Of a DNA stretch of 55,443 nucleotides, positions 1,455 to 29,751 are shown in pieces; the first letter of the stretch is position 1, and every line of letters starts with the position of its first letter. Origin of the DNA: a virus (Duplodnaviria; Caudoviricetes). The position numbers were made by a program, and so were the translations under genes. Where the stretch lies: positions 1-55,443 of the IMG/VR virus record IMGVR_UViG_3300023202_000273; one strand, given 5' to 3'. The notes beneath the pieces are model-generated. The model saw nothing but the letters and a program-made list of their open reading frames with translations. It did no database searches and was not told the DNA's origin.

Positions 1455-1545
1455 GCTGTAACCGCAAAGCACATAGTAGCGTATGTTTTTCCCAAAGTTC
1501 ATAGGCTTGATTCTCAATTTTATTTTTATTACCTGTAACATACAG

Positions 1546-1935
1546 TCAGAGTTTGTGAAAATTGCGTAATTCTCGCAATGTCTCTTCTAACCTATTGCAT
1601 CTGCCAACGAGAGCGTCGAATTCGTTTGCATCTACCCAATTTTTGTTCTGATAAAACAACATATAATATTTTTTTCGGTATGTACGCTGTGCTAACTCAG
1701 TCCCACTTGTAATTACGGTGTCTTTATGATCGCATTGCGTGCTACCGCTGTTGTTTGTCTGTGGCTTGGCGCTCTCCTTGTATTGGGGCCACCGCACGAC
1801 CCATTGATACCAACCAACCATAATTCGCAAACCATAGCTGTGAGCAATAAAGCCAATCTGGAACCACCGATACCCTACCGACAACGATGCATAGTTTTGC
1901 TCACCACAACAATACTTAGATTTTGTTACTGCCAT
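1546..1935 (-). CDS. Cassette-borne hypothetical protein (MAVTKSKYCC...), probably a fusion across a decayed attC
   Basis: ATG at 1935 after GGGGG. The ORF reads through the attC-like hairpin at 1658-1756. Confidence 0.55.
   Translation of the reverse strand: MAVTKSKYCCGEQNYASLSVGYRWFQIGFIAHSYGLRIMVGWYQWVVRWPQYKESAKPQTNNSGSTQCDHKDTVITSGTELAQRTYRKKYYMLFYQNKNWVDANEFDALVGRCNRLEETLRELRNFHKL
1658..1756 (-). other. Degenerate attC-like site D
   Basis: AAACAAC-A-GCGGTAGCACGCAATGC...GCACAGCGTACATACCG, followed by an A-run where N5-GTT is expected. Confidence 0.55.
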
Positions 1936-1969
1936 TGTGCCCCCTATAATATGACCGCCAAGCCATTGC

Positions 1970-2041
1970 GCATAACGTTTGAGCAATGGTGAAGTACGAT
2001 TAGCATTTGCCGTAGGCCGAAGCACCATTGCTTTGTTGTGT
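1970..2041 (-). other. attC-like site B
   Basis: ACACAAC-AA-AGCAATGGTG...CACCATTGCT-CAAAC-GTTATGC, with perfect 10-bp arms. Confidence 0.7.
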
Positions 2042-2064
2042 GCCGTTGTAAATCGCCTTCCGCA

Positions 2065-2343
2065 TTATTCCTGCGCGGCGATCTTCTGATTTACATTCTG
2101 AGCTCTGACCAAAAACACTCCGTCATACATACCAACGGCTCCGGGAAAATTTCGTAAATCTTCGCTTAGGGCATGACAGGGAACCCAAGCTTTCTCATCA
2201 AACTCAAGTCCGTCTGGATTTGCTATCGCTTTATAGCCTTCACTTGTAAGCAAGAACGTTGGATTCTGCACACCAAAACCACGGAGGACTCTCCCGTAGT
2301 CAGCGATCACTTTCATCATTTTTGTTTCTGTTTTCATTCGCAT
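2065..2343 (-). CDS. Inner-cassette hypothetical protein (MRMKTETK...AAQE)
   Basis: GAGGAG RBS before ATG 2343. Bounded by ATTATAGGCGCGGCGA and TCGCCGCGCAGGAATAAT. Confidence 0.65.
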   Translation of the reverse strand: MRMKTETKMMKVIADYGRVLRGFGVQNPTFLLTSEGYKAIANPDGLEFDEKAWVPCHALSEDLRNFPGAVGMYDGVFLVRAQNVNQKIAAQE

Positions 2344-2558
2344 TTTGTTTTTCTCCTCGCCGCGCCTATAATAAGCTGGGCCTGTTGGCTGTTGCAAGTT
2401 TGCGACTTCCATCCATCCATAATGTTTGCGGGCGTTTCCTCGATCCATCCACAACCGCCACTATCCGGCAAACAAACCCACGGGCCACACCGCTGCATAC
2501 CAACACCATTATCAACAAAATCAGCTTCGCACTTGGTACCACACTTTGGACACTGCAT
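2334..2558 (-). CDS. Inner-cassette zinc-ribbon protein (MQCPKCG...)
   Basis: AAAGGA RBS; CPKC...C-x6-C pattern. Confidence 0.6.
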   Translation of the reverse strand: MQCPKCGTKCEADFVDNGVGMQRCGPWVCLPDSGGCGWIEETPANIMDGWKSQTCNSQQAQLIIGAARRKTKCE

Positions 2559-2613
2559 ATTGTTCCTTTCTTGCGCCCGCCTATAATTTCCAAAAGGCGA
2601 GCAATTTCCACCA

Positions 2614-2743
2614 ACGTAACGGTTTGCAAAATGTATGCTGTGCTCACTGCGGCACCTCCATGCCACAATCTTTGCAGACGTGATACGGCCCATCCGATAG
2701 GTCTTGGTGTCGGTGTAAGCATGGCATACTTTTGCTGTTGTGT
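2614..2743 (-). other. attC-like site A
   Basis: ACACAAC-A-GCAAAAGTATGCCATGC...GCACAGCATACATTTTGC-AAACC-GTT. The arms pair with one extrahelical base. Confidence 0.7.
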
Positions 2744-2943
2744 GCTGTTTGGTTTTGCTCCGCGTTTTCCTGCTCGGCCTCTGCTTCACACTGCGCGGCA
2801 TACGCTTCTTGTTCCGCTTGAGCTTCTGCGTCCATTGCAGCAACATATTTTTCTTCCACCAGTTTAATACCACGAGTAGCACAGAACTCTACCAAGGCAA
2901 GATAATCTTGCCCTTTATCTGAACCGATTACTATAACCTGCAC
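2644..2943 (-). CDS. First-cassette hypothetical protein (acidic helix plus C-terminal CxH/CxxC)
   Basis: GGAGG RBS and GTG at 2943. The C-terminus is encoded inside attC A. Confidence 0.6.
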   Translation of the reverse strand: MQVIVIGSDKGQDYLALVEFCATRGIKLVEEKYVAAMDAEAQAEQEAYAAQCEAEAEQENAEQNQTAHNSKSMPCLHRHQDLSDGPYHVCKDCGMEVPQ

Positions 2944-2972
2944 AAAACCTCCAAAGAGAAAATTATTTACAC

Positions 2973-2990
2973 CAACGTACACATCACGAA
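2973..2990 (-). other. Putative attI-like array entry site, copy 1
   Basis: TTCGTGATGTGTACGTTG, 17/18 identical to 18015-18032. Confidence 0.6.
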
Positions 2991-2991: not shown

Positions 2992-3369
2992 CTAATATCC
3001 CCACATGACAACCGCATCAGATTGACGATTGTCGAGGTGGACAAACCGGTTGTCCTTGTACCCGATCCCGCGGAACCCGACCTCGATCGCGCACCTGATA
3101 AGGTTGCCCTCATGTTGGGGGTGAGACTGTGGATGCACGCAAACGACGTCAAAGCCGCAGACGTCGCCCCTGCACAGATGCTTGCTGTCCGGTGCACCGC
3201 CAACGGATGTGTTGTGGTCTGGGCATCGTGCTGCACTGGTCACGATCAGAGGCACATCCATGATCAGCCGCACCGTGTACAGCATCTCGACGGCTCTCTC
3301 CGGCGGCATCAGGCCGCACCCGCATTTGCATTCGAGTTCACTGTTTTTGAAATACTCTTTGACTAACAT
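2992..3369 (-). CDS. Peptidase M15 (Zn D-Ala-D-Ala carboxypeptidase-like) endolysin
   Basis: YFKNSELECKCGCG, SAARCPDHN, SKH...FDV and FVHLD motifs. Confidence 0.85.
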   Translation of the reverse strand: MLVKEYFKNSELECKCGCGLMPPERAVEMLYTVRLIMDVPLIVTSAARCPDHNTSVGGAPDSKHLCRGDVCGFDVVCVHPQSHPQHEGNLIRCAIEVGFRGIGYKDNRFVHLDNRQSDAVVMWGY

Positions 3370-14577: not shown

Positions 14578-14606
14578 TTGACATAATGTTTGACAAAGGT
14601 TATATT
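14578..14606 (+). promoter_or_regulatory. Sigma70-type early promoter
   Basis: TTGACA-17 nt-TATATT with an A-rich upstream tract, at the strand switch. Confidence 0.75.
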
Positions 14607-14953: not shown

Positions 14954-15865
14954 ATGGCTAAGTTAACCAAATCTCATCATGATGTAAGCGACTGCCAGAC
15001 AATTGCAGACGTACTGGACTACGTCGGCGGCAATTTTATTGCTGAGGAGGTGCCGTTGATAACCGCGAATGGTATTGACGTTCCGCGCCACAAGGCGGTC
15101 ATCCGCCCGGACAACGGCACTGTGCTGGGCGTCGTCGGCAACCGGTACGTTACAATCCAAAACAGCACAGCGTTTTCTTTGTTGGACACGATCGTACAAT
15201 CCTACAACGGGCGGTATACCCACGCATGGGATGTCGGCGGTGGACAGCAAACTATCATCCAAGCGGAGACCGACGAGTCTGTCGATATCGGTGGTGGGGA
15301 CATCGTTCAGGGCAACATCACGGCGATCAATTCTCACGACGGATCCAGCAGTTTGAGGATCTGGTTCACCCCGGTACGGCTGGTGTGTCTCAACGCCCTG
15401 GCGGCATCGTTGCGCCGTAAAACCCATCAGTTCGCGATCCGCCATTCGGCGACCGCAGAGTCCCGCGCAGCAGAGGCGGCGAAGATTATCTGCCAACAAT
15501 CAGAGTATCTGGAGATTTTTCGCGATAAGGCCCGTGCGCTTAAAAACAAAGCAATCGATGCCGGGATCGTCGAAAAATTCCTGAGCGAGGTAATAGGCGA
15601 CCCTGCAAGAGGCGTCGACTCAGACGGCACTCCGAAAGAGTCTGCCCGCATCCGCAACCAACATGATGCAATCACCGATCTGATCAAAAATGGAAAAGGG
15701 AACAGCGGCGAATCGCTCTGGGACGCCTACAACGGAGTGACCGAGTATATCGACCACCACAAAGGATCTGACGCCGGGGACCGTGGGGTGAGCGCAATAA
15801 TCGGCAACGGCAACGCGATCAAAAAACGCGCGTGGAATGTGGCCCAGTCGCTGGCCACTGCGTGA
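14954..15865 (+). CDS. DUF932 phage/plasmid protein
   Basis: LGVVGNRYVTIQN, NSHDGSSSL, TPVRLVCLN, IRHS and SLWDAYNGVTEYIDH motifs. Confidence 0.9.
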   Translation: MAKLTKSHHDVSDCQTIADVLDYVGGNFIAEEVPLITANGIDVPRHKAVIRPDNGTVLGVVGNRYVTIQNSTAFSLLDTIVQSYNGRYTHAWDVGGGQQTIIQAETDESVDIGGGDIVQGNITAINSHDGSSSLRIWFTPVRLVCLNALAASLRRKTHQFAIRHSATAESRAAEAAKIICQQSEYLEIFRDKARALKNKAIDAGIVEKFLSEVIGDPARGVDSDGTPKESARIRNQHDAITDLIKNGKGNSGESLWDAYNGVTEYIDHHKGSDAGDRGVSAIIGNGNAIKKRAWNVAQSLATA

Positions 15866-15868
15866 CGT

Positions 15869-15911
15869 TTGACAACTTGTATGACACAGTGTATATTTAC
15901 TGTGTCATACA
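15869..15911 (+). promoter_or_regulatory. Sigma70 promoter overlapped by a 13-bp inverted-repeat operator
   Basis: TTGACA (15869)-17 nt-TATATT (15892). TGTATGACACAGT and ACTGTGTCATACA flank the -10 box. Confidence 0.75.
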
Positions 15912-15932
15912 TTTTAACCATCAGGAGGCATT

Positions 15933-16154
15933 ATGTCACGCAGTGACAACAAAATGGTACGGCTCACCCCGGAGGCACATCAGCGCCTGACCGATCTGGT
16001 CAAAAAAGTAAACGCGTACAGGGGTGCTGGTGCCGTCAGATTGCGCCACCAGCATGTCGTATCACGAGCAATTGACGTTCTGGACAAATACATCTGCCCC
16101 GAGTGCGGTGGGGTGTGCCCTGCAAAAGCATGCCCATGCTCGTCGGATTTTTGA
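15933..16154 (+). CDS. Ribbon-helix-helix-like regulator with C-terminal CxxC
   Basis: KMVRLTPEAHQRL strand-helix pattern; AGGAGG RBS. Confidence 0.55.
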   Translation: MSRSDNKMVRLTPEAHQRLTDLVKKVNAYRGAGAVRLRHQHVVSRAIDVLDKYICPECGGVCPAKACPCSSDF

Positions 16155-16172
16155 ACATAATTATTTTGAGAG

Positions 16173-17126
16173 GTGATAAAAGTGAAATACACAAACTTTT
16201 TCGGGTTGCCGCGGAGCATCACCGAGGCCCTGACGTATGACTCTTATGACCTGACAAATGCGCCGGCAAATGTGCTGTCAGTGACAACCATCATCGGTCC
16301 GCCGAAATACGAAACCCTCAAATCGCGGCATCGTGACGAGGTTGTGGAGGACGCATCGGACCGGGTGTGGACCCTGCTCGGTAACAACGTACACCACATC
16401 CTGCAGTCGCGTACCAATGGGGAGTACCTGTCCGAGGAGCGGTGGTATCTGGACCTCAAAAGTTTTGATGTCTACACACTGCCGTATAAGGCAAAACTCA
16501 CCGACACCGACTGGTACAAAAAAAATTTGTGGTATCTAAGCGGCAAATTTGACTCGTACGACGGCGAGTCACTGGCGGTCGAGGACTACAAGGTCACGTC
16601 GGTATACGCCCTCAAGGGGGCGCAGCGGGGAGAAAAACCTGAGTGGGGACGGCAGCTCAACATTTATGCATATGTGCTCAATCTTCTCAAGTTTGAGGTC
16701 AAGGCAATCAGAAACATTCTGATCTTGCGCGACTGGAGCCAGTCTAAATCGAAGACCGAGTCAGACTACCCACAGTGCCAGGTAGGCATTGTCGAGCACC
16801 CGCTGGAGTCACCCGGTGATGTTAAAACCTACATCCTCGAACGTGCCCGCCTGCACTATCAGTCACGCCTGACCGACGACGACGATATCCCGGAATGCAC
16901 TCCGGCGGAACGCTGGAAACGGGAATCTGTCTATGCCATCCATGCCAAGGGAAAGAAGCGGGCGATCAAACTGCACAGCTCTAAAGCCGATGCGGAGGCG
17001 GATTTGGCTGCCAGACAGGCCACCACAAAGGATAAACTGTACATCGGTTTTCGAGGGGGGGCCGAGACACGATGCTCCGACTACTGTAATTTCAAACAAT
17101 TCTGCCATTTCGGGAGGGAACTATGA
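16173..17126 (+). CDS. PD-(D/E)XK (Cas4-like) exonuclease
   Basis: LGNNVH, SGKFD, EDYK, QLNIY and C-terminal RCSDYCNFKQFC. Confidence 0.8.
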   Translation: MIKVKYTNFFGLPRSITEALTYDSYDLTNAPANVLSVTTIIGPPKYETLKSRHRDEVVEDASDRVWTLLGNNVHHILQSRTNGEYLSEERWYLDLKSFDVYTLPYKAKLTDTDWYKKNLWYLSGKFDSYDGESLAVEDYKVTSVYALKGAQRGEKPEWGRQLNIYAYVLNLLKFEVKAIRNILILRDWSQSKSKTESDYPQCQVGIVEHPLESPGDVKTYILERARLHYQSRLTDDDDIPECTPAERWKRESVYAIHAKGKKRAIKLHSSKADAEADLAARQATTKDKLYIGFRGGAETRCSDYCNFKQFCHFGREL

Positions 17127-17611
17127 TTTTTGGCAAAGACTACGGATACAACGTCAAGGACACCATAACGGCGCTCAAGGACAACACCCTGCTCATCGTC
17201 ACCGTAGAGGTGTGGGCCCCAGAGATACGATACACAACGGCTCTCAGTGTCCCGCTGGTGCACCGCGACGAGACCGGTGCGATCAAATACAACCGTGATG
17301 CTCTGCCGCAGGCCCTGTCGGATGAGATTCAGGGAGCACTGAGCAAATCCAACCAACCAGATAAACCAGGGGATGACGAAAAGCGAGACGATCAGCCTGC
17401 TGCTGAGGAGTCTGCAGGCGATGGTGACCCGAACGTTGACCTCCTCAGACAATCGATGGTAAAACGTTTCGGGGACAACGCAGAAGCAGGTAGAGATTTT
17501 ATTAAAAAAGCGACGGCATTTGGAAAATTCCAGGGTAAAAGCGGCATCGCCCAGCTCAAACCGGCTGAGGTACGCAAAGTACTCAAAAAACTCGAGGTTG
17601 ACCCGGTATGA
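17123..17611 (+). CDS. Hypothetical protein in the recombination module
   Basis: ATGA-coupled on both sides. Confidence 0.6.
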   Translation: MIFGKDYGYNVKDTITALKDNTLLIVTVEVWAPEIRYTTALSVPLVHRDETGAIKYNRDALPQALSDEIQGALSKSNQPDKPGDDEKRDDQPAAEESAGDGDPNVDLLRQSMVKRFGDNAEAGRDFIKKATAFGKFQGKSGIAQLKPAEVRKVLKKLEVDPV

Positions 17612-18006
17612 GGATGCTGATCGATGGCAACGATGGTAAAACCGAAGCACTCGCGGCAATCCGTGCACTCGATGGCAAGTACATTGTCGAAATAAAGCGA
17701 CACCGAAAAACACGGTCCACGGACCAGAATAATCTGTACTGGGGACGACTGAGGTGCCTGTCTGACTACACCGGGTACACAGCCGAAGAGCTACACGATC
17801 TTTTTAGGCACGAGTTTCTCGGCGAGGACCGTAAAATGGTACTCGATAAGCCGCTGTACACGATCAAAAGCACTACCACACTTGATACTAAAGAGTTCAC
17901 GGCATACATTGACAAAATCAAACTCTACTCGGCCGAAGAGATTGGTGTCTATCTACCCGACCCAGGTGAGCCTGACTATGACAATTTTGGTGCTCAGTAC
18001 ATGTGA
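17608..18006 (+). CDS. NinB/DUF1367-like recombination accessory protein
   Basis: KTRSTDQNNLYWG, EELHDLF and STTTLDTKEFTAYIDKI. Confidence 0.75.
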   Translation: MRMLIDGNDGKTEALAAIRALDGKYIVEIKRHRKTRSTDQNNLYWGRLRCLSDYTGYTAEELHDLFRHEFLGEDRKMVLDKPLYTIKSTTTLDTKEFTAYIDKIKLYSAEEIGVYLPDPGEPDYDNFGAQYM

Positions 18007-18014
18007 TAGTTTAT

Positions 18015-18032
18015 TTCGTGATGCGTACGTTG
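18015..18032 (+). other. Putative attI-like array entry site, copy 2
   Basis: TTCGTGATGCGTACGTTG. Confidence 0.6.
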
Positions 18033-18068
18033 TAGTCAATTAACCTAAAACATTGTAGGAGCGCAAAA

Positions 18069-18305
18069 ATGTATAAATGTAATGAATGCGGTGGGTTTCT
18101 TGAGGAGTTGGGTGATATGGCGGTGTCAGACGGTGGGTGCGTTTGCGCTCAGAAAAAAGCTGAGGAATCGGCTAACAGCCTACAACTGCTAAAGACTGAA
18201 ATTGCTCTTACTGTTAGCTCTATCGCAAGGGACACTTCTATTCCAGCGGTTGATCGGCTTGATAAAATTGTGATGTTTGTATACGAGCAACTATCATCCG
18301 TTTAG
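18069..18305 (+). CDS. Cassette-borne small Cys-containing protein
   Basis: AGGAG RBS; CNEC...CVC. The C-terminal half is encoded by the attC-like site. Confidence 0.65.
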   Translation: MYKCNECGGFLEELGDMAVSDGGCVCAQKKAEESANSLQLLKTEIALTVSSIARDTSIPAVDRLDKIVMFVYEQLSSV

Positions 18306-18318
18306 CGGGACGTTAGGT
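18180..18318 (+). other. attC-like site
   Basis: CTACAAC-T-GCTAAA...TTGCTC / GAGCAA...TTTAGC-GGGAC-GTTAGGT. CTACAAC is the exact complement of the cassette start GTTGTAG (18029-18035). Confidence 0.75.
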
Positions 18319-18323
18319 GAAAT

Positions 18324-18914
18324 ATGAAAAACTATGGAATTATAGGCGCGGATAAGACGGCGCGTCCTGTGCCGAAAATGCACAGAGCGTGGGCCATGCC
18401 TAACAGCCTCACGTTCAGTATCAAGCCTATCCGAGAGTTGATTGGCAGCGTCATTGTTGATTGTTTGAATGTTTGCGATCCATTCGTGCGCAATAGTCCG
18501 TTTAAAGCCCGGTGCGTGTCAAATGATTTAGACACAAGTGTTGAGGCGGATTTTCACATGGATGCACTCGATTTTCTCCGGTCGCGTTCCACCGCCGAGT
18601 TTGATGCGTTGCTATTCGACCCCCCGTATTCTCCGCGTCAAGTTTCGGAATGTTATAAGCGCATGGGCTTATCAGTCAACATGGCGACCACACAGGCATC
18701 GTTCTGGTCGAATCTCAAGCGGGAAATTCAGCGGGTCGTTATGCCGGGTGGGGTAGTTATTACGTGCGGCTGGAACAGCGGCGGCATCGGTAAAAAATAC
18801 GGGTTTGCCATAGAGCAGATTTTACTTGTCGCCCACGGAGGCTGGCACAACGATACTATTTGCACCGTCGAAAGGCGGCGCACGTCCTGTGCGCAAGAAT
18901 CCGCGCAGGAATAA
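18324..18914 (+). CDS. Amino (N6-adenine-type) DNA methyltransferase
   Basis: DPF, NDL, DALDFL, FDPPYS and HGGWHNDTICTVE motifs. Confidence 0.85.
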   Translation: MKNYGIIGADKTARPVPKMHRAWAMPNSLTFSIKPIRELIGSVIVDCLNVCDPFVRNSPFKARCVSNDLDTSVEADFHMDALDFLRSRSTAEFDALLFDPPYSPRQVSECYKRMGLSVNMATTQASFWSNLKREIQRVVMPGGVVITCGWNSGGIGKKYGFAIEQILLVAHGGWHNDTICTVERRRTSCAQESAQE

Positions 18915-19096
18915 TATGGAAGGAGGTTTTCTACCCCGGTGCGGGGTGTTATGAACGAAGTCACCCAATCCCTGAAAAAGCGATTTACTTATACAAGGAG
19001 TCACCGGGAAAAGCCTGCAGCGATTGCGATAAATCGTAACCGCGCATGGATTGCAATGCATAAATAACAAATCACCATTTAACAAAAGAGGTTTTT

Positions 19097-19261
19097 ATGG
19101 ATTCTGTTTATATCGTTCAAACCGTAACTGATACCATTCGCGACAGCGCGGCAACCGCTGCGCAAAGCGGTAATGCCGAGTCGGTGTTATGGACCATTGC
19201 TGCGATACTTTCGACGATTACGATGACGATAGCGATTGTTGATTTTGTCAACACTCCCTAA
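19097..19261 (+). CDS. Small single-pass membrane protein (54 aa, not in the ORF track)
   Basis: MDSVYIVQTVTDTIRDSAATAAQSGNAESVLWTIAAILSTITMTIAIVDFVNTP; GAGG RBS. Confidence 0.55.
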   Translation: MDSVYIVQTVTDTIRDSAATAAQSGNAESVLWTIAAILSTITMTIAIVDFVNTP

Positions 19262-19290
19262 GCCTCGGTGTGTGCATACCGTCATGGCGC

Positions 19291-22200
19291 CTATTCTTCG
19301 GATGATCCCAGAATGCGTTTGTTGTACTGCCGGTTAAGGTTATCTGTGAGCTTCTCTATGTTTTCGTCAATGTTTTTGACGGCGTCCATATCGTTGTGCT
19401 CATATGCTGCCCGCCGGCGCTTTTTTTGCTCCCTGATCTTGCTCTCGATTCCAGATACGATCGATCTTCCCTTGCTCGGTTTTCTTGTCATGATCAAAGC
19501 CTGACGATTGCGCTTCCCGAATGCCTCGGCTTTTTTGCGCTCGCCGTTTGCAACGAGATTGTCATACTCAGCCCGGATCCGTTTTAGCTCTACCAGTCTA
19601 TCATACATGAGCGATTGATCATACCAGCTCTCGATCTCTCCATAATACCTGCGGACAATAGGCACATTTCGCGGCGCCGGTGCTTTTTTTGATACGGCGT
19701 TGTTTAGCAGATTTACAGACCGCTCAATGGTTTTCCCGACCCCGCCGGTCATGTATTCATACACGTACTCAACGCCCTCCGGGGATATGTCCAGTAAACC
19801 ATGCCGGTATTCGCTCCCGCCGGTCAGTTCATTGAGAGCCTGCAAAGGCTTGGTGTACACATCAGGTGTCGTCGCCTTGGCCGAATGTGCGCGGGATTTC
19901 TCGGGTCCGAATTTTTGCTCCAGCCATATGTCACGGCCGATAAAGTTTTTGTTGAGACCCAAGTCAACCATGAGGCGACCAGCCGTCGGGGTAACGGTCT
20001 GCAATAGCGTGCTGGCTGATCCGATGGGAGAAAATGTTGCTGCCGCGGTCGTGAGCAGCCCTTTAGTGGCATCTGCCAGTTTCCGGCGGTTGTGCACACC
20101 ATGGTCAATGGCCTGTCCGATCGCCCAAAACAAATTGTACCCGTACGGCAGCGGTATTTTTGCGTAACGACCATTAGTCATCGGGATAATAAAATTGTGG
20201 GCTTTTTCCCATGCCGGTATTTTATCATAATGATTCATCTCATCGTCATCGTCTCCCATCACCATCCTGGACAACTGCGCCATTGCGAGCGACCCAACCA
20301 CGGCGGCTCCTGCAATTGCCTGCACTCGGGGGTTGCGCATGGCCTGCAGCATACGGATGTTGCCCTGTATCGAGGCATTGGAAAACACATAAAGCGCGTT
20401 AACCATCGTTCCAAGCTCGCCCTTTTTATTAAAATTGACAGTAATCCCCTTTGCGATTGCGGCCGACTTCGCCTTCGAGACACCCATCTCACGCATCGCC
20501 CGGTAAACCGACAAGCGAGACGCGTTCTCAACCGCTGAATTCAACCGGCTGACGTAATCACCGGCGCTCCGATACATGCGTTTAATCGATGTCACATTTC
20601 CGGGCTCCAGCATTTCAACCGATTTGATGAGGCGCTTCTGTATATCGTCGACTTCGTTCAGTCCAAAAAACCCGATCCGGCCGCCAGCCTCGTCGAATTC
20701 CTTGTACCATTTTGCCCACCCTCCGCGCATATCTCCGCCCTGTGCCCTATAGGCGCCCTTGATAGACCCCGGGATACCCCGGATGGTTTTTATGACCGCC
20801 TTAGCAGCCTCAGCATTGTCGAGACCTTCCAGGCCTCCAACATTGGCAATGGCGGTCTGCACGTCCCTGGTTAGATTCGTCAAAACGAACTCAGGATTCA
20901 ACTGCGTGTTTATCGCCGCGATGTACCGGTTCCACTGTGCCGACATCTGCAGGATCTTATTCGCCCGGTCTGCCCCCAGGTTAACCATGGCCCGAGCCAG
21001 AGCCGGATCATTTATCCGGATATGGTGCTCAACCCCGTCACGCTTAACAACCATCACATTATCGTCAATTTTTGTATCGACAACCTCCTCAACCTCACCA
21101 GTAACCGGGTTGAGGCGGCGTGTCATCTGCGGAGTATCAACATCCCACAGATTAACGGTGCGGTATTTGCCGTTCTCTTTTATGCGAGTTTTTACACCCT
21201 GGTTTTGGGTGGCATAGTCCAAAAACGATTGCCCGACCCGGTTTTTCTCAGCCCTGACTATGGCGTCGGATAACTGTGTGATCGAATTCGCAATGATATT
21301 TTCGGCCATCGAGCGCCGTCCCAATGCCCGCTTAGACTCCGGGCCCCGAATGGAAAAACCTCTTCCAATGCCTCCGCCACGAGTGCTGGATACATATTTC
21401 GTGGGGTATATCCCACGCTGGTCAAGATCGCGCTCGGCTTTCTGAGCGTCCCCCTTGTATTTTTTCAGCGCCTTTTCATGCTCTACGACATAATCGTCAT
21501 CCTCATATAGTGATATCCCACGCAGCGGGACATAGTTCTCGTAGTTCTCCCACGCCGCAAGCGTCTCTTCGCTTATGTTGCCTGCATCGGAGAGTATTTT
21601 TCGTGTGCGGCGGTTGATGTCATAAACCATCTCGGCGAGGCGGTCGTACTGTGCCTGTTTACCAGACTCACGGACCTGCTGCAAAATATTTTCGGCGTCC
21701 GCGTCACTCATGCCTGACCCGCTGGACATATCAGGATTTATCTCTGCGATCGCCTCGTTGCGTTCCTGTGCATGCCGAGCATACAGGTACGTCTCTAAAT
21801 CATGCATCGGTATCCCGTAGCTGTGTATGCGCTTAACCAATGGGTCAACAATGGTCCGATTGATGTCGTCCACCTGCGAGGCGACTTTACCATGCATGAT
21901 AGTCTGCTGCAACATCGCGTCCTGGGCTTCATTGGCCGGCGGGATGTATTTCTGGATCTCCTCGAGTCGGGAAAATTTTTCAACAACCTTGCGGGTAAGA
22001 TACCCCTTGTACGTCTCCATGGGCACCCACCTGACCGGAGCAGTGCGCTCCTCGGTCATGGTTTTGCGCTGGAACATCGGCTGTCCGTCCATGTCGCGCA
22101 TCCGGTCATTAACTACAACCGTAAACTGTGGGCCATTCCCAAGGTCGATTGTCGTGGTCTCAGCGCCAAACTGTTTTTTAACGTACTTCTTTGTCCACGT

Positions 22201-25200
22201 CGGAAGCTTTTTGTCATACAGATTAACAGCCCACTCCGGAGGTGGAGAATCCTTGATCTCTTCCTCCGTCAAATTCTTGTTGTCTTTGGCCAGCAGTTTC
22301 TCTGTCAAATCCTTGCCAATGTATTTCGGCAGCTCTGACTCAGGCACTGTCACATTGATCGGAGTATCCTGTCCGACTCTTATTGCAGTCAGTTCGTTGG
22401 TCTCCGGGTTGTACTTAATCCCCGTAATGTCAAGACCATACATGTCCTGAACTGTTTTTGAATTCGGGAATGACACGTACTCTTTGTCAGCCCCGTCGGC
22501 CAATGCACGCTTTACACCTAACTCCATCCAGTTGTTTGCAAAGGGGAAGTCTTCGACCACTTTGTCTTTTAAGCGCATGTCATCCCGCGTAGCCATTTCT
22601 GACCGGGCATAGAGATCTGCATCAATCTCAAACTCCTCGCGATTCATCTTTTTATGCCAGTCATCCCCGTACTTGTCGCGCATCTTGTCGCGGTAATCTT
22701 TGAGATCCTCCTCAGCCTTCTCGATCTTTCTCAGAGACTCAGCCTTCTTTTTATCGAACAACTTATGCTCCCGCAGCTCTTTCGCCCAGTCGCTCTGTAC
22801 CTCCTCGACATTGAGCACATTGCTGACGATGGCTTTGCCATCAAACCCTCGGGCGCGAGCATAATGTTCAGCCTCAGCCTCAGTGACGGCACCCTTCCTG
22901 ACAGCCACATCAGGGCCGCCAGATCCAACAGAGGCAGAGGATTTCGCTCCAACAGCTTTGGCTATCCGGGAGGCAATATCAACAATATTTGGGTAATGTT
23001 TTCTCTCAGTGGTCCTAATGTGGACAATGACATCTCCCTCTACCCAGTGGATTTCGGGTGGCGTGTAGCTGTATGGCCCCTCTGCGGTCAATAATGTCTC
23101 GCTGTAGTTCTCATACTTTCCAGGGGCGACATAGTCCTCGTGCAGTGCAGCGTAATCGCGGTCTTCGTCAATGTTCGCCCACTCTAAAGCGTCCTCAAGA
23201 GTGCCCTGAAAATCAGTCATTGTTTGATAATCGTCATCATCGATCATGTGCTCGGAAGTTATGGCCAAAGTATTATCATTAACATAATCAACCTCAAAGC
23301 CCTGATCATCCGCCCACGCCTCTAAAAGCCTAATCCCGGACCGCTTGTCAACCGTCCCTATGCGTAGGTTTTTCTTATTTTCGTGCAACTGGTTGAGCAA
23401 AGATGTTTTTGTCGTATCAGGGTTTTTTTCAAGATACTCAGATAGGCCAAGCGCGTCTATCTCAGATTGCTTAAGTCTCCCTTTTTTTATCATGCCCTTT
23501 ACAACATCGGCCACGCCTTTTTCCTGTGGGATGGCCTCGATTGCGGCGATGAGATCGGATTTCCATTTGCGCAGGTTGCGTAAGTACGTCGGCTGCGATA
23601 TATCAACGGGCGTTTTGACGGTGCTGAATTCAGAGTTCAGATCAGACAGGCTGCCCGTGAATTTTTCCAGGTTCTCCTTGCTGTCAGACGCGGCGTACCC
23701 CTTGAAGTTTCCGGAATCCCAGTACTGCGCCACATGGCCGAAATTGTCACGCAGCATATTCTCGAACTGTTCCGCCGATACCTGGTTTTTGTGCATCCCG
23801 ACCAAGACTTCTTCGGATTTTTCCGCCAGCTCTTTTTCGTCATAGTACTGGTCTTTAAACAAGTCCTTCTTGGCCTCGTTCTCAGCCCACTGGGCATCGT
23901 CATCGCTTTCCCGATAAAATTTCTCTTCGAATAGTGCCACACCGTCAGGTTTTAACACCTCTTTCACCTGCCCGATGTGCGTACCGCGATCATTAGAGAT
24001 GAACTGGAATGTCATCCCCTCGTGAGCGTAGTCAAATTTTTCTCCCGGGGAAAACGGCTCAACGACTGTGCCGTCTGGATCTGTCCATCCCTCTCCGAAT
24101 GGAGCATTGACAAACGTCGCCCCAGGAGCCTGTGGCTGATCCATGAATGTCTGCTCCATGGAATTGTTGGGGTCAACCGAAACCGTCTGGATTTTACCGT
24201 CTGATGCCGACGATATCGCTTTGCCCCACGATCCCTCAGATGCGCCTATGTCAACAACTCTGCCTGAGCCGAGGGATTTGACAATGGCATCTGCAACAGC
24301 CGGCTGGACCTCAAAGTATCCCGGGATGGATGTAGCGATGTGGCGATCGAAGTTTCCGATGTACTTTTTGCGGGTGTCCTGCAACGCTTTGGCAGGCTGA
24401 CCGAGATTAATGACAGGAGAGTACCCCCTCCAATTGGGGGTCCCCCTCCTGCCCTCAGTAACAGATGCGAAAAATTTATTAGATTTTAGAAATGTATCGC
24501 GCTTATCAGGTCCATCTTTTCTTTGGTCATCGGACCGCTCATAATCCGCTCGTACTCGGCCTCGGCCTTCAAGACCCTCTGCTTCAGCGGCGAATCCGGC
24601 CCGTTCTTGACCTTCTCGTACGCCTCCTTCGACGACGGGAACGGCTCTTTTTCTTGAGTAGGCTGGCCCTCCCCAGCGGTCTCGGTAGCTTTCGACGACT
24701 GCGGATATCTTCGGACTGAGAATCCCGTCAAGCCTTCTTTGTAGATCGGGGAATCCGGCGGCTCGTGCCTCACTGATATAATCCTGCCCATGTGGCCTTC
24801 CTTTCCAGTTTTCGTGCTCCGGCATGTCTCCCTCAGAGAAAAACCTCCCGATAGAGATATCGCCGGACACCGTATTTGAGATTATTTCTTCTGCCCCTTT
24901 GTACCAAGGGGTTTGGTTGTCCCCCTCGAATCGTACAATCCTGACCCCTCCCGGCGTCGGAATAACGCCGATCTTCTCCTCTGGCTTTCTGACTGCCCGC
25001 TCAAGAGCCTCCATCTCGGCGGGGGTAACGTCGCGGCCTAATTTAACCCATATCCCGTTTGCCGCTCTCTTGGATCGCCCAGGTAGCGGCATGTGCCACC
25101 CTACACCATCCTGGCGCAGGAAATATCCGTACATCGATGCTGCAGCGTTGAGCTGGTTTTTCGTGCCCTTGTCAACGCCTTGGTTAAACATCATCGGCGC

Positions 25201-28200
25201 AATAACCTGCGACGATGGATTTGATTTGTACTGCCATGATCCAGGCAGTACATACTCACCAACCTCTGGCAGCCCAACCGCTTTTAGTATTTCGCTCTGG
25301 CCATTCTCATCGTTGATCGCCTGCATGATAGCGTGATGAAACTGCAGCCGCTCATCATATGGCGCATCATGTATCCCCGGCAGCAAATCAACCTGCGAAC
25401 TCGGTGTTGCCTCCCACGACAATTGCCCAGACTGGGTGGTGATAAAATCCTTAAATGACCCACCGGCATCAACTCTGTCGCCAGATCTCTTTATAACATT
25501 GAACATCTGGCTCTGAAACCACCGGTTTGATTCCGGCGACATCTCCAGATTGCCCTTTTTATTGCGAACATACTCTATCTTGCCCTGCTTTTTTCCTCGC
25601 GATACGATGGCGGGCGCCTTCGCTTCCCATTTTGTCTTAGCGGCGGTCCATACCGCTGCTTGGACCTGCTGGATCTCAACGCCTTTTTCGTCGGCCAGAT
25701 CCCTGACCATTTCCTCCATTAATGTATACTGGGCATCTGTGGGAGTGTCTTTCAAATACCCAAAAGCCCGAGTCATCCACACATCAATCGTTGCACCCTG
25801 GTCTATGGCCGGGTCGACCTCAACCAATAGGTTATTCCGAAAATTTCGGACCTTGCGACCCTTCAGCAATTCGTTGCTGGTGATATCTCCAGACATGTAT
25901 GCAATCAAAGGCGGCTCGTTTTTGTTGGGGTAACGACCGAGTTTCAGATCCACATCGGTATCACCCCTCGCATCAGCAGACTGCCACCGCCGGAATGCCT
26001 CCATCGCCTGGGATGCATTTTCAGCAACGCCGTTTTGTGGAGACAGGTACGCCAGTACCGACGCGAGCCGCTCCGCATACTCCTCATCCCCGCCAGAAAT
26101 ATCTTTGATCACCTGAGAGCTTTCCTCGTACCACCCCTTCGCTGGCTCTCCCTCATTATATAATTTCCGGATATGACCCCGGAGTTTTTTCATGTCCTCA
26201 ATTTTGGCCACGCTCGGCGGTGCCACTGTGACCTTTCCGGCCTTTGTAACGTGCGGCTGTACCTTCCCGCGGACCCTACGCATATGTTGCGGGGCTTCTC
26301 CACCATCGCTCAGGTCTTGGCGCTGCGCACCTTCTTGATCGCCTTCTGGTACGACTCGTTCCGAGCGACTCTGAGCGCGACCTTCAGCGCGTGGCTTTGA
26401 CTTACCTTCCGGGGCTTTTCGTACTTCATCTGCATACCGCTCTCCTCTGATAAATGTCTGCTGTCGGCCAGAATCTTTGGCTTTGTATAGCTGTTTGTCG
26501 GCTTCCTCAATGTTTTCCCCAATTCCCGCTGAAAACGTAATGCCGGTCAGCCCATCGCCAAAGTCAACTTCTTTCAATGCCTCCCGGGCAACCTCAATCT
26601 TTGGCGCAAGGCTCTCAGCCGTAACACCTTCATTTGGGATAATCGCAAACTCCTCGCCGCCCAGCCTGACAACACTCGCATCATTGCCAAACGTGTTGGA
26701 GAGAATACCACCGAAGGCTTTAAGTACATCGTCGCCTTTCCCGTGCCCGTAGGTATCATTGACACCCTTAAAGTGGTCGATGTCAAATATCGCAGTCGGA
26801 CGATCGATTCCCCCATCCTCATTGGCGATGCCCTCATCCTTCAAATACTCGCGGTTGTTCAAACCAGTGAGACGGTCCTTATGGGCCTTATCCCTCCACG
26901 CAGACACCGTCTTCTCTATGGCATCAACCGACTCGTCAGATGCAGACCTAAGACCATCCTCGATGGCCTTTGCGTCACGGCCTGTAACCTTGGACATCTC
27001 CTTTGCCAGATCAGCTCTTTTATTAATATAATCAATGTTAGACGGTTTGTCAACCCCTTTGTCTGACCCTTCGCTCTTTGCTCTCTCTTCAATGTCAGCA
27101 TACTGCTGGTATTTAATCTCTCTTTTGCGCAGTATCTCCTGTTTATCATCGCCGACGTCAAGCTCTATGTTGGTGTCGAGATCGGGCAGGCGCAACGATA
27201 TCCCTGGCCGCTTATCTTTGTCTCCAATTTTCAGGCCCGGGCGCTGCCGCTCTGACGGAACGCCCTCGGGGATAGCTTCCTTAGCAACGGCTTTTAGTGT
27301 GGCAATGTCTTTCTCATCGCCGAGATACTCAGTATCCGCAAGCTCTGGCTGTTCAACATCATCCGGCTTCTTCTTACGCATATGGTCGGCGGATCCTGTC
27401 TGATCGATGTCAGCCGGTTTCTTATCACGCAGGCTTTTTATCAATCCACGCATTACGTTGCGTGTTCTCGCCTGCTTGTCGCCCATTATCCCTTTGATCC
27501 AGTCGTGTATCTGGCTCCCAAGCCGCGCCAAATCACCCTTGCCGGACTCGTCCGTCAAAAACTCTGCCCCGGCGTCAGCGACGAACTCTTTGAATATCAC
27601 GCGGTCCTTCGCGTCCTCAACCGCCTTCTCTACGCCCTCTGTATTCTCGTTCCCCTCGTTACGGGATCGGACAAGTTCTTCCATCAACTTTATGTCCTCT
27701 TTGTACTCCTGGACCTTTTCCTTGTACTCGTCGGTCTTCTTGTACTCGTCGTAGGCCTCTTGGGCATTCCTGTACACTTCTTCACCAGACTCATAGGCTG
27801 CGTAGTGTGTAAACTCATGTGCGAGTACTTCGCCCACATTGTGGGGGGCAACCGATGGTGAAATAACGATCTCGTGCGCATCCTCTCCTTGCAAAAACAC
27901 ACCCGCGCCCGGTAGCTGTTGGCGCCTACCTTCATGCACAAAACTATCTGCAACCTTTATCTTTAACGGAGTCGCATCCTTGCCCATTTTTTTCTTGACA
28001 TCATCGGCGAAATTCTGCGCCTCATGAAATACCTCTATTTCGCGCCGGCGCATAACCTCGGCCCCGGTCTTTGACCCCAATCCCTTAACAGCTTCACCTT
28101 TCCTCTTTATCGTCTCAATGTCGGCCTCATCTTCAGGGTCGTACTCAACATCAACCTGCCCCTCCCCAGTCTGCTCAATCATTGTACGAACCGATCCGGG

Positions 28201-29751
28201 TATCCCAAAAACCCCGGTGGTAATCGCCATCGGGCCCCACACCTGCTTGAATGTCTCTGTTGCTGTGGCCTTAACGTTCTCCCTAACCTGGCCCCAGTCT
28301 ACATCCTCGCCCATGTCACGCCTTGCTAATTCCCCGGCCATATAGGTTACGATTTCCTGCGGTACCTCAGTCAATGTTTCAGACAGCCATGCCATGGATC
28401 GCTCTGTGCCAACTTTGCTAACTCTTTTCAGCGCCTCACTGGTGATTTTTTTTGCGACCGCATTCTTCAGTTCGCTGAAAGGAACCTTGCCCATTCCAGA
28501 AAGTGTACCCAACTCTCCCAACAACCCATAAACGATTCCAGTATTTACAGATATCGGCAAAGCAATGTCACGAGGGACACCCTTATCAGCCAAGTCCAGC
28601 ATGACTGACCCGGTCCCCTGCTTTGTCCAGTAACCCGTCGCCAGTGCCGGGCCTACCACCGGTATCAAAGACAGGGCTATGCTCTCACCCATCGCCGGCA
28701 GCATCTCTGCTGTAGCCGTCAACGTGTTGCTGGCACCCTCGATATCATCATCTTTTGCCGTCTCCGACGCGCGGGCCCGCATCTCAATCAGCTTACTGAC
28801 CACCTCGTCATTCATGCTGAGATACGCGTCAACCGCCAAATGGTCGATCCCTGTCGTCAAGCCCCCTCTGCTAAAAGCCTTTCCAAGTCCCGGCCTCTTA
28901 TCCTCGATCTCCACCAGTTTGTCTAAAAGTTTTTTAGCCTTTCGGTCTGTCGGGTCTATACCCTCAGCGAATGCAAATGCTTTTTCCCCAGTCTCAACCA
29001 TCTTCTCGCCACGCTTTTTGCGGGCTTTTTTCGATTCGTAAAGGAGAAATGATGACACATCCTCAATTTGGTCTTGCTTGACTCCTTGCCCACGAAGATC
29101 CTTAGCAGCTTTTCGAATGTGATTTGCCACATTCTGTGGGTTTACCCCGGATGCATTGATGCCATACACATCCGCAATTTCACGGCCAGATGACAACTGT
29201 TCGACGCGACGTTTCTCCTCGGACAGGTCAACGTCGGCCATCTCCTTCCCCTTACGCACCATCTCTGATCCAGCCGCACGCACCATCGTCCCCGTCGGCC
29301 CCGGTGTTACCGGAGCCTCCTCTGGCAAACCGATCTCTCCAGCAGGAGTGAATGCAGCAATTGTTTTGTAACCCGGGGCATACGGGATCTTACGGCGCGG
29401 GGCAACATCAATTTCGTCATCATATGGCTTCACGGTGACCGGTTCGGCTGTACCAAGGTCAGTTACCGGCTGTGCCCCCTCGAAAATCCCCTGCGCTACG
29501 ACCTGCGGGTCATCGCCAGCTCCAATACTACGATCTTCCGACGCCGTGGTCTGGACAAGGGTGGATGCAGCGGGTTCAGCCTGTGGCAAAACATCGCTGC
29601 TTTGCAAAGAAGGTATGCCGCCAAATGTTCTGATAAGTTCGTCGTCGTCAGGATACTTATCAACAACGGCCTTCGCCAGCACGTAGTCGTCAATATCAGC
29701 ATACTCTGGGTATTTTTCTTTGACCGCTGCAGAAAAATCAGTTACTCTCAC
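19291..29751 (-). CDS. Large polyvalent (probable ejection) protein: zincin, GGDEF, HhH-like, SAM methyltransferase and LPD38-like domains
   Basis: HEFTH (27805-27819), GGEEF (26647-26661), WYE...TIDVWM...QAAVW, VVDIGASEG and C-terminal KIPLPYG...P...NKNF; last gene of the structural operon. Confidence 0.85.
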   Translation of the reverse strand: MRVTDFSAAVKEKYPEYADIDDYVLAKAVVDKYPDDDELIRTFGGIPSLQSSDVLPQAEPAASTLVQTTASEDRSIGAGDDPQVVAQGIFEGAQPVTDLGTAEPVTVKPYDDEIDVAPRRKIPYAPGYKTIAAFTPAGEIGLPEEAPVTPGPTGTMVRAAGSEMVRKGKEMADVDLSEEKRRVEQLSSGREIADVYGINASGVNPQNVANHIRKAAKDLRGQGVKQDQIEDVSSFLLYESKKARKKRGEKMVETGEKAFAFAEGIDPTDRKAKKLLDKLVEIEDKRPGLGKAFSRGGLTTGIDHLAVDAYLSMNDEVVSKLIEMRARASETAKDDDIEGASNTLTATAEMLPAMGESIALSLIPVVGPALATGYWTKQGTGSVMLDLADKGVPRDIALPISVNTGIVYGLLGELGTLSGMGKVPFSELKNAVAKKITSEALKRVSKVGTERSMAWLSETLTEVPQEIVTYMAGELARRDMGEDVDWGQVRENVKATATETFKQVWGPMAITTGVFGIPGSVRTMIEQTGEGQVDVEYDPEDEADIETIKRKGEAVKGLGSKTGAEVMRRREIEVFHEAQNFADDVKKKMGKDATPLKIKVADSFVHEGRRQQLPGAGVFLQGEDAHEIVISPSVAPHNVGEVLAHEFTHYAAYESGEEVYRNAQEAYDEYKKTDEYKEKVQEYKEDIKLMEELVRSRNEGNENTEGVEKAVEDAKDRVIFKEFVADAGAEFLTDESGKGDLARLGSQIHDWIKGIMGDKQARTRNVMRGLIKSLRDKKPADIDQTGSADHMRKKKPDDVEQPELADTEYLGDEKDIATLKAVAKEAIPEGVPSERQRPGLKIGDKDKRPGISLRLPDLDTNIELDVGDDKQEILRKREIKYQQYADIEERAKSEGSDKGVDKPSNIDYINKRADLAKEMSKVTGRDAKAIEDGLRSASDESVDAIEKTVSAWRDKAHKDRLTGLNNREYLKDEGIANEDGGIDRPTAIFDIDHFKGVNDTYGHGKGDDVLKAFGGILSNTFGNDASVVRLGGEEFAIIPNEGVTAESLAPKIEVAREALKEVDFGDGLTGITFSAGIGENIEEADKQLYKAKDSGRQQTFIRGERYADEVRKAPEGKSKPRAEGRAQSRSERVVPEGDQEGAQRQDLSDGGEAPQHMRRVRGKVQPHVTKAGKVTVAPPSVAKIEDMKKLRGHIRKLYNEGEPAKGWYEESSQVIKDISGGDEEYAERLASVLAYLSPQNGVAENASQAMEAFRRWQSADARGDTDVDLKLGRYPNKNEPPLIAYMSGDITSNELLKGRKVRNFRNNLLVEVDPAIDQGATIDVWMTRAFGYLKDTPTDAQYTLMEEMVRDLADEKGVEIQQVQAAVWTAAKTKWEAKAPAIVSRGKKQGKIEYVRNKKGNLEMSPESNRWFQSQMFNVIKRSGDRVDAGGSFKDFITTQSGQLSWEATPSSQVDLLPGIHDAPYDERLQFHHAIMQAINDENGQSEILKAVGLPEVGEYVLPGSWQYKSNPSSQVIAPMMFNQGVDKGTKNQLNAAASMYGYFLRQDGVGWHMPLPGRSKRAANGIWVKLGRDVTPAEMEALERAVRKPEEKIGVIPTPGGVRIVRFEGDNQTPWYKGAEEIISNTVSGDISIGRFFSEGDMPEHENWKGRPHGQDYISEARAAGFPDLQRRLDGILSPKISAVVESYRDRWGGPAYSRKRAVPVVEGGVREGQERAGFAAEAEGLEGRGRVRADYERSDDQRKDGPDKRDTFLKSNKFFASVTEGRRGTPNWRGYSPVINLGQPAKALQDTRKKYIGNFDRHIATSIPGYFEVQPAVADAIVKSLGSGRVVDIGASEGSWGKAISSASDGKIQTVSVDPNNSMEQTFMDQPQAPGATFVNAPFGEGWTDPDGTVVEPFSPGEKFDYAHEGMTFQFISNDRGTHIGQVKEVLKPDGVALFEEKFYRESDDDAQWAENEAKKDLFKDQYYDEKELAEKSEEVLVGMHKNQVSAEQFENMLRDNFGHVAQYWDSGNFKGYAASDSKENLEKFTGSLSDLNSEFSTVKTPVDISQPTYLRNLRKWKSDLIAAIEAIPQEKGVADVVKGMIKKGRLKQSEIDALGLSEYLEKNPDTTKTSLLNQLHENKKNLRIGTVDKRSGIRLLEAWADDQGFEVDYVNDNTLAITSEHMIDDDDYQTMTDFQGTLEDALEWANIDEDRDYAALHEDYVAPGKYENYSETLLTAEGPYSYTPPEIHWVEGDVIVHIRTTERKHYPNIVDIASRIAKAVGAKSSASVGSGGPDVAVRKGAVTEAEAEHYARARGFDGKAIVSNVLNVEEVQSDWAKELREHKLFDKKKAESLRKIEKAEEDLKDYRDKMRDKYGDDWHKKMNREEFEIDADLYARSEMATRDDMRLKDKVVEDFPFANNWMELGVKRALADGADKEYVSFPNSKTVQDMYGLDITGIKYNPETNELTAIRVGQDTPINVTVPESELPKYIGKDLTEKLLAKDNKNLTEEEIKDSPPPEWAVNLYDKKLPTWTKKYVKKQFGAETTTIDLGNGPQFTVVVNDRMRDMDGQPMFQRKTMTEERTAPVRWVPMETYKGYLTRKVVEKFSRLEEIQKYIPPANEAQDAMLQQTIMHGKVASQVDDINRTIVDPLVKRIHSYGIPMHDLETYLYARHAQERNEAIAEINPDMSSGSGMSDADAENILQQVRESGKQAQYDRLAEMVYDINRRTRKILSDAGNISEETLAAWENYENYVPLRGISLYEDDDYVVEHEKALKKYKGDAQKAERDLDQRGIYPTKYVSSTRGGGIGRGFSIRGPESKRALGRRSMAENIIANSITQLSDAIVRAEKNRVGQSFLDYATQNQGVKTRIKENGKYRTVNLWDVDTPQMTRRLNPVTGEVEEVVDTKIDDNVMVVKRDGVEHHIRINDPALARAMVNLGADRANKILQMSAQWNRYIAAINTQLNPEFVLTNLTRDVQTAIANVGGLEGLDNAEAAKAVIKTIRGIPGSIKGAYRAQGGDMRGGWAKWYKEFDEAGGRIGFFGLNEVDDIQKRLIKSVEMLEPGNVTSIKRMYRSAGDYVSRLNSAVENASRLSVYRAMREMGVSKAKSAAIAKGITVNFNKKGELGTMVNALYVFSNASIQGNIRMLQAMRNPRVQAIAGAAVVGSLAMAQLSRMVMGDDDDEMNHYDKIPAWEKAHNFIIPMTNGRYAKIPLPYGYNLFWAIGQAIDHGVHNRRKLADATKGLLTTAAATFSPIGSASTLLQTVTPTAGRLMVDLGLNKNFIGRDIWLEQKFGPEKSRAHSAKATTPDVYTKPLQALNELTGGSEYRHGLLDISPEGVEYVYEYMTGGVGKTIERSVNLLNNAVSKKAPAPRNVPIVRRYYGEIESWYDQSLMYDRLVELKRIRAEYDNLVANGERKKAEAFGKRNRQALIMTRKPSKGRSIVSGIESKIREQKKRRRAAYEHNDMDAVKNIDENIEKLTDNLNRQYNKRILGSSEE

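Follow-up and report, generated by a model that had tools for sequence, protein, structure and literature searches.

A cassette-like unit with an attC-like site, and arrays of mirror-geometry sites, in uncultivated phages

We lean towards reading positions 18029-18312 of this phage genome as one gene-cassette-like unit, in which a small cargo gene (orf78) has at its end a roughly 139-nt site (18180-18318) that functions as an integron attC site does. The structure of the site, the strand on which its pairing is selected, the clustering of such sites into arrays, the boundary rule that relates the two ends of a unit, and the breakpoints of homology to other loci are all demonstrated by comparison with other sequences. 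An earlier note, made from the letters of this DNA, had proposed a second array of cassettes here, with the same grammar as array 1. Its interpretation is partly supported. The core of it holds: one cassette-like unit with a site resembling attC is present, and another array has the same grammar. The site is a mirror-geometry variant of attC.

We propose the following mechanism. Between its inverted cores (..ACAAC/GTTG..), the site has a variable centre and two covarying helices; as single-stranded DNA, it would fold on the antisense strand relative to the genes. Exchange of units would occur by a crossover in the core site, most simply via a circular intermediate, which would explain why the R'' core complements the first bases of its own unit. 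The core would be cut by a recombinase, and since these phages encode none that is recognisable, we infer that this enzyme is host-encoded or of unknown kind. On the simplest history, a bare (simple) GTT site between ninB and the methyltransferase gene probably took in the orf78 unit. More broadly, the family of sites builds same-strand arrays of small accessory genes in uncultivated phages.

The orf78 unit and its neighbourhood

The window (the whole stretch of DNA that we analysed) is a complete virus record of 55,443 bp with direct terminal repeats of 127 bp. Scores labelled R1 come from a covariance model that was built on the aligned family of sites and run over the whole window with its filters off. 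The features around the unit are:

14954-15865, plus strand: gene for a DUF932 protein
16173-17126, plus strand: exonuclease gene (phrog_2139)
between the exonuclease and NinB-like genes, plus strand: gene for a 162-aa protein
17608-18006, plus strand: gene for a NinB/Orf-like recombination mediator (phrog_72, E 2.5e-22)
18015-18040, plus strand: left junction, made of a spacer, an R'-type core (GTTGTAG, 18029-18035), and a conserved ...CAAT tail
18069-18305, plus strand: orf78, the cargo
18172-18328, plus strand: attC-like site (R1 103.3 bits, E 6e-25)
18180-18186, plus strand: R'' core, CTACAAC
18188-18199, plus strand: L'' arm, GCTAAA-G-ACTGA
18202-18208 with 18284-18290, plus strand: inner helix, TTGCTCT with CGAGCAA, enclosing the variable centre
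18294-18306, plus strand: L' arm, TCATCC, then a bulged G, then TTTAGC
18307-18311, plus strand: spacer, GGGAC
18312-18318, plus strand: R' core, GTTAGGT
18324-18914, plus strand: DNA methyltransferase gene (phrog_11619, E 8e-47)
18939-19067, plus strand: orf42, a small ORF with no family match
19097-19261, plus strand: orf54, a small hydrophobic ORF with no family match
19291-29751, minus strand: gene for a 3486-aa polyvalent protein with LPD38, GGDEF, and DUF7178 domains

The plus-strand genes at 14954-19261 converge on the 3' end of the gene for the polyvalent protein, and a minus-strand block at 13944-5431 codes for a primase-helicase, NinG, and SSB. The NinB-like gene is the last conserved gene 5' of the orf78 unit. 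The identities that the earlier note gave to this gene and to the methyltransferase agree with the matches to phrog_72 and phrog_11619; the Pfam NinB score of the 17608-18006 product is 16.6 bits, which is under the Pfam cut-off. We also noticed some features elsewhere in the genome. The GGDEF diguanylate-cyclase domain of the polyvalent protein occupies residues 956-1098 (E 1.2e-22). A perfect 151-bp tandem duplication (33247-33547, two copies that are 100% identical) lies within a 934-aa minus-strand ORF (31299-34103). Promoter-like sites at 15869-15911 and 14578-14606 have the same hexamers (TTGACA-17-TATATT), and a 34-nt palindrome (15878-15911) that looks like an operator overlaps the site at 15869.

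The motifs that had been picked out beforehand are all where they were placed: GTTGTAG at 18029-18035 and CTACAAC at 18180-18186; the arms GCTAAA (18188) with TTTAGC (18301) and TTGCTC (18203) with GAGCAA (18285); and GGGAC (18307), GTTAGGT (18312), and TCACCATTTAAC (19072). The two pairs of arms are two helices of a conserved, covarying structure. Because there is no hairpin upstream of it, we take the left junction (18015-18040) to be a simple, attI-like or half site. The ACGTTGTAGTCAAT of this junction also terminates full sites in other loci, and an 18-nt near-copy of the junction (2990-2973, minus strand) marks the start of array 1, although this match alone is not significant (E 4).

The Shine-Dalgarno sequence of orf78 (TAGGAG) is at 18056-18061, and the proposed site sits inside a gene with a good ribosome-binding site. 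The N-terminal part of the protein resembles a zinc ribbon (CxxC...CxC), and its C-terminal 41 residues are translated through the recombination-type site, with the TAG within L' as the stop codon. Eight homologues of orf78 were found in metagenomes, and their alignment is a mosaic: in one set, the zinc-ribbon N-terminus is common and the C-termini are unrelated, and in another set, the C-terminus is common and the N-termini are unrelated. A short hinge and the last residues are invariant across all of them. The hinge is encoded by about 30 nt that hardly differ among otherwise unrelated contigs; this block and the 3' block form an imperfect inverted repeat. Nine stretches of the viral collection, from contigs of 47-467 kb, contain an exact 23-mer of the hinge block.

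At the level of DNA, homology to two other loci (L084 and L085) begins at 18027 and 18022 respectively, beside GTTGTAG, and extends to about 18205; it restarts at 18287 and ends at 18314, which is the GTT of GTTAGGT. These breakpoints and the test of the boundary rule (see below) bear out the earlier claim that units are bounded at GTT cores. The claim of a cassette-like unit with an attC-like site also stands for orf78, whose site is a structured member of the family at 103.3 bits. The "array 2" that was described here does not stand as an array, as it contains one full site and a junction sequence only.

The earlier note had also taken the methyltransferase for a cassette with its right end at 19072, and neither part of this is supported. 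R1 finds no site in 18850-19450 (best 4 bits), nor does it find an attC-like site in any of 64 loci that encode homologues of the methyltransferase (identity at most 64%). The protein itself matches the phrog_11619 profile and has the catalytic DPPY motif (FDPPY in the translation), which are the two marks of its family; there is no match of note in Pfam, NCBIfam, or PDB. Its ORF starts 6 nt past the R' core and has a Shine-Dalgarno sequence (AGGTGA) that overlaps this core. The gene opens at a cassette-type left end, GTTAGGTGAAAT, and the same 8-mer opens a unit in the locus L068 whose own R'' complements it. At the supposed right end, TCACCATTTAAC (19072-19083, between orf42 and orf54) would be the expected R'' but for three added bases, and co-occurring variants do not conserve it. 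As a separate matter, AATTATAGGCGCGG.. (18340-18362) precedes start codons in other units of the family and here falls within the opening codons of the ORF annotated as the methyltransferase. Since most homologues align only from residue 18-21, translation may in fact start at the ATG at 18378.

Co-occurring strains vary downstream of 18916, not at a GTT. Among these strains, 18939-19261 is variable: alternative alleles occur, one loose end falls at 18916, and there is a weak 18919>19051 joint. The contigs of four sequencing runs (from one study) keep NinB, orf78, and the methyltransferase contiguous (17806-18788 is identical in run X3); none of them joins across 18030-18312 or has a joint at the unit ends, and contigs drop rare variants. 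Two further observations concern this region. First, 18901-18923 matches 2078-2056 on the minus strand (23 nt, 91%, E 0.28), which takes in the last codons (..AQE stop) and the next bases of the methyltransferase and of an unrelated gene in array 1, and the natural variants break at 18916-18919, inside this 23-nt block. Second, runs X3 and X4 carry a divergent allele of the orf54 region at 19061-19290 (25 differences and one gap over 229 nt in the X4 contig), and the neighbouring regions are nearly identical.

A family of structured sites in arrays

Within a single sequence, the motif pattern is not above chance, and it is significant only via comparison with other sequences. GTTRRRY occurs 34 times in the window versus 45 expected, exact 7-mer inverted repeats at 50-300 nt number 975 versus 890 +/- 43 in shuffles, and GTTNNNN with a downstream complement is found 30 times versus 22 +/- 5. 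At least two six-base inverted pairs are present in 57% of 139-nt windows (the mean is 2.27), and the candidate site has two. The folding of 18176-18322 is no better than that of shuffled sequences (z of +1.10 and +0.27 on the two strands). So single-sequence motif counts, inverted-repeat counts, and folding cannot decide anything.

The comparison rests on a structure alignment of 15 copies with 23 specified pairs. Bases are paired in 95.1% of the cells, versus 22-46% with slid partners. Both sides have changed in 16 cells, versus 3.8 in shuffles, and none of 500 shuffles reached 16; five of the seven pairs of the inner helix have compensatory changes. The window's own copy of the site breaks 4 of the 23 pairs. 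As in attC, the L'' and L' repeats are conserved as structure around a variable centre, and the stems of array 1 are entirely different. In the commonest subtype, the reading frame is open through the site in 14 of 14 copies, stopping at the TAG in the 3' arm (L'), so this sequence is both translated and structured.

On the other strand, the claim that array 1 shares the same grammar is supported by three minus-strand R1 matches (E values are for the whole window):

1392-2990, minus strand: array 1, a junction and three sites, after the endolysin gene
2992-3369: endolysin gene (phrog_894)
2990-2965, minus strand: junction of array 1
2751-2599, minus strand: site (R1 36.6 bits, E 1.7e-7)
2049-1960, minus strand: site (R1 17.8 bits, E 0.013)
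1462-1392, minus strand: site (R1 20.7 bits, E 0.0023)

The stems of these sites differ in both sequence and length, and their flanks are the same. The window has four R1 matches with E < 0.1, all of them within the two proposed arrays. With three sites and no integrase, array 1 resembles a CALIN (a cluster of two or more attC sites without an integrase); array 2 has one site. Directly beyond the last site of array 1, there is a near-perfect 27-nt palindrome (1377-1403).

In other records, R1 is specific. The 15 carrier loci (96 kb) have 74 matches (E up to 0.1), in head-to-tail order on a single strand, and the 80 control loci (769 kb; 64 methyltransferase, 2 NinB, and 14 giant-protein loci) have 5. 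All five were in L068, which is the nearest relative, as its giant protein is the closest to the window's (40% identity). Same-strand arrays of up to about 18 sites are found in viral contigs, and the carriers include complete phage genomes of 213 and 254 kb; in one of these (G001, 213,094 bp), all 15 R1 matches cluster between 4028 and 12845. The sites lie at gene ends, 30-60 nt 5' of the next start codon. Many of the sites in L089 have other stems and other lengths (48-160 nt across sites) and are partly or wholly outside genes. We also observed that L068 has successive units (12232 and 12996) with the same 3' half-site and the same leader of about 45 nt to the start codon, and with different cargo; this duplication crosses the R' core.

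The family is absent, at the level of blastn, from 50,697 GenBank phage records and from 72,556 plasmids. A search of GenBank phage DNA with 17000-19700 gave a single match of 104 nt, to the methyltransferase only. Loci that were found via NinB, the exonuclease, or the C-terminus of the giant protein have no synteny with the ninB-orf78 locus, and Rfam has no match in the window. Among 185,579 species genomes, the exact 23-mer has no matches and a gapped pattern has one (L105, 6172-6792 on the minus strand), which is on a 32-kb scaffold of a Proteobacteria MAG and has 2-3 sites. No integron integrase above the cut-off was found in that MAG. The scaffold may be a binned phage or a prophage, which gives a weak hint as to the host.

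Likeness to integrons and departures from them

CALINs were reported in virulent phages in 2023, some of them with methyltransferase cargo (PMC9892861). According to the available text of that paper, they are rare (17 in 10,705 genomes), and five methyltransferases are reported in phage cassettes. Nothing closer than these CALINs turned up in the literature on phage CALINs and hairpin-repeat arrays, insofar as its text was accessible. To the extent that the accessible portion of PMC9892861 describes its sites, the site family is previously undescribed, and the 17 CALINs could still include a related site type.

The family is like integron attC sites and CALINs in several ways: the cores are inverted AAC...GTT, the helices are conserved in structure and not in sequence, the centre is variable, folding is selected on the antisense strand, and the opening bases of a unit complement its R''. 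As in CALINs, short ORFs are arrayed on the same strand, with no integrase nearby, and as in the phage CALINs described in the available text of PMC9892861, a methyltransferase adjoins a site. AAC and GTT are conserved across the family, and in the window R' (GTTAGGT) fits GTTRRRY at 7 of 7 positions and R'' (CTACAAC) fits RYYYAAC at 5 of 7. The core of the family (..ACAAC/GTTGT..) departs from that of attC (RYYYAAC/GTTRRRY) at one position on each side. Because the family core lacks TAA, ORFs read into the site, unlike in attC. The spacers also differ from those of attC: the one nearer the cargo measures 1-2 nt and the far one 4-10 nt.

We examined strand preference and unit boundaries in 57 sites (4 from the window, 48 from the loci, and 5 from L068), leaving out L083 duplicates (L083 is the same contig as L089), reverse-strand mirror matches, one truncated copy, and matches with E above about 0.001. 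As a control, we used the genuine integron array of Vibrio phage Va_90-11-286_p16, which PMC9892861, in the text available, lists as a complete integron. In 55 of the 57 sites, the antisense strand (relative to the genes) allows the stronger pairing of the arms (Wilcoxon 7e-11), with 144 wobble pairs on the antisense strand versus 37 on the sense strand. The preference persists without the core and spacer (52 of 57) and outside the commonest subtype (38 of 43). The folding energies of whole elements do not separate the strands (26 versus 31), but those of the arms alone do. The Vibrio control prefers the bottom strand in 13 of 15 sites, with 41 versus 9 wobble pairs. Like attC, the family shows selection for the fold on the bottom strand, antisense to the cargo. 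Given the excess of antisense wobble pairs, the mRNA would carry A-C mismatches. The strand bias argues against a role in the mRNA and for folded single-stranded DNA.

In integrons, R'' complements the first bases of its own cassette, which is the footprint of a G|TT crossover via a circular cassette. In 16 of 39 units of the family, all three variable positions of R'', taken as its reverse complement, agree with the R' of the preceding site, where the unit itself begins; a perfect match to the R' of the same site is found in only 2 of 39. No permutation out of 5,000 reached 16, and the Vibrio control obeys this boundary rule in 13 of 14 cases. The orf78 unit obeys it too, and its complementarity of GTTGTAG and CTACAAC is just what the earlier note had pointed out. 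In array 1 of the window, it is obeyed in neither of the two testable units.

The geometry of the hairpin is mirrored. In 53 of 56 sites, the folded strand has its extra unpaired bases (a bulged purine and the longer spacer) on the 5' arm; in the canonical Vibrio control, 13 of 15 sites have them on the 3' arm and none on the 5' arm. According to the available text of PMC3053210, the extrahelical bases of a canonical attC are on the R''-L'' arm, which is the 3' arm of the folded bottom strand, and shifting an extrahelical base to the other side abolished excision by IntI1.

The family also departs from attC in how its parts move. A canonical cassette keeps its attC. In the family, the four best pairs of units that share cargo have unrelated site centres (score 0.05-0.07), and the one pair that shares a centre has unrelated cargo. 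For instance, the window, L084, and L085 have the same cargo and unrelated centres, and the window and L086 have the same centre and different cargo. Cargo and site centre thus reassort, instead of moving jointly as they do with attC. The data for linkage among cargo, centre, and downstream gene are too sparse to show whether a centre travels with the one neighbour or the other.

R1 itself has no match in the genuine Vibrio array. On four published CALIN phages, it gives a single weak match (14.8 bits), in Polaribacter phage P12002L, between two methyltransferase genes and with a similar inner repeat. The available text of PMC9892861 also places the attC cluster (CALIN) of P12002L with two methyltransferase genes.

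As for an enzyme, neither the integron integrase model (TIGR02249) nor the tyrosine recombinase model (PF00589) has a match in the window, so the window does not contain a complete integron (integrase, attI, and Pc). PF00589 is found in just 1 of 10 other carrier records (a provirus), which leaves 10 of 11 carrier records, including the window, without a tyrosine recombinase. Resolvases and Y1 transposases are absent from 5 of 5 records, and no recombinase appears in the PHROG annotation of the genes that flank the arrays in L089 and L068. No donor among bacterial integrons turned up.

Competing explanations and their meaning

It is possible, and we suggest it only tentatively, that the sites belong to a phage-borne cassette system that is distinct from integrons, in which mirror-geometry hairpins would be recombined by something other than a classical integrase (perhaps a host-encoded enzyme, or a phage protein that we do not recognise). 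If so, uncultivated phages, including those with genomes over 200 kb, would have a way of their own to capture and shuffle accessory genes and to swap the C-termini of small proteins.

Alternatively, the sites could be recombination linkers that need no dedicated site-specific recombinase. Exchange would then occur by homology of the conserved 15-30 nt blocks, or by cutting of cruciforms at their base, with the phage's Exo, NinB, NinG/Rap, and SSB as the actors, as proposed for the PeSL elements of T4-type phages. We consider this rather unlikely, but it deserves to be taken seriously. Cargo, centre, and downstream gene reassort independently; breakpoints fall at both ends of the hairpin; 10 of 11 records lack a recombinase; and this phage does encode an exonuclease (phrog_2139), NinB, NinG, and SSB. 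There is also a precedent, as homologous shuffling mediated by PeSLs is documented in T4-type phages in the available text of PMC4122927. There, short conserved stem-loop sequences flank small accessory ORFs in hyperplastic regions and mark points of modular exchange, with no dedicated recombinase, all of which is like our family. However, homology alone does not predict that R'' would complement the start of its own unit (16 of 39, versus 2 of 39), nor the selection for pairing on one strand, nor unrelated stems with the same architecture. Furthermore, as PMC4122927 describes them in that text, PeSLs are composites of terminator and promoter that act on the transcript, whereas selection in the family is for antisense-strand pairing, and crossover in the core is what the boundary rule indicates. 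As for PeSL-type features in the family, no T-run follows the stems, and promoter-like hexamers are downstream of R' in some units only.

Another comparison is to mobile elements. Like our sites, IS200/IS605 and REP/RAYT elements have imperfect, bulged hairpins whose action is confined to one DNA strand. Unlike these elements, the family has one hairpin per unit instead of two ends, it forms arrays of cargo, and the Y1 transposase is absent from 5 of 5 records.

We give little credence to the idea that the sites act as RNA in the early or lysis transcripts, for instance to terminate transcription, to process or stabilise the RNA as a hairpin, or to couple translation between small genes. It would fit with the location of the sites at gene ends, 30-60 nt before the next start codon, and with the overlap between the R' core and the Shine-Dalgarno sequence of the methyltransferase in the window. 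But the wobble pairs favour the antisense strand (144 versus 37), there is no T-run after the stems, and Rfam has no match in the window.

It seems similarly improbable that all we see is a shared C-terminal protein domain (SLQQLKAEI ... LRQLSAV) of small paralogous proteins, with the symmetry of the DNA as a by-product. The frame is indeed open through the site, with its stop in L', in 14 of 14 copies of the commonest subtype. Nevertheless, compensatory changes between codons that are about 30 residues apart have no rationale in the protein, and the sites at 2049-1960 and 1462-1392, along with many in L089, have other stems and lengths and lie partly or wholly outside genes. Finally, a chance pattern among ordinary phage accessory genes, which the chance-level statistics and folding of the single sequence might suggest, is scarcely credible given the covariation, the specificity of R1, the clustering in arrays, and the boundary rule.

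To return to the cassette-like reading that we prefer, it matters because the accessory regions of phages are the main reservoir of anti-defence and host-takeover genes, and the movement of small genes between unrelated phages is poorly understood. In complete phage genomes that lack an integrase, the family forms arrays of up to about 18 sites, with a bulge geometry that IntI1 reportedly refuses (as far as the available text of PMC3053210 goes). If this reading is confirmed, then cassette exchange through folded DNA would not be confined to integrons. There would also be a sequence model for recognising exchangeable phage genes in metagenomes and a defined substrate with which to hunt for the enzyme.
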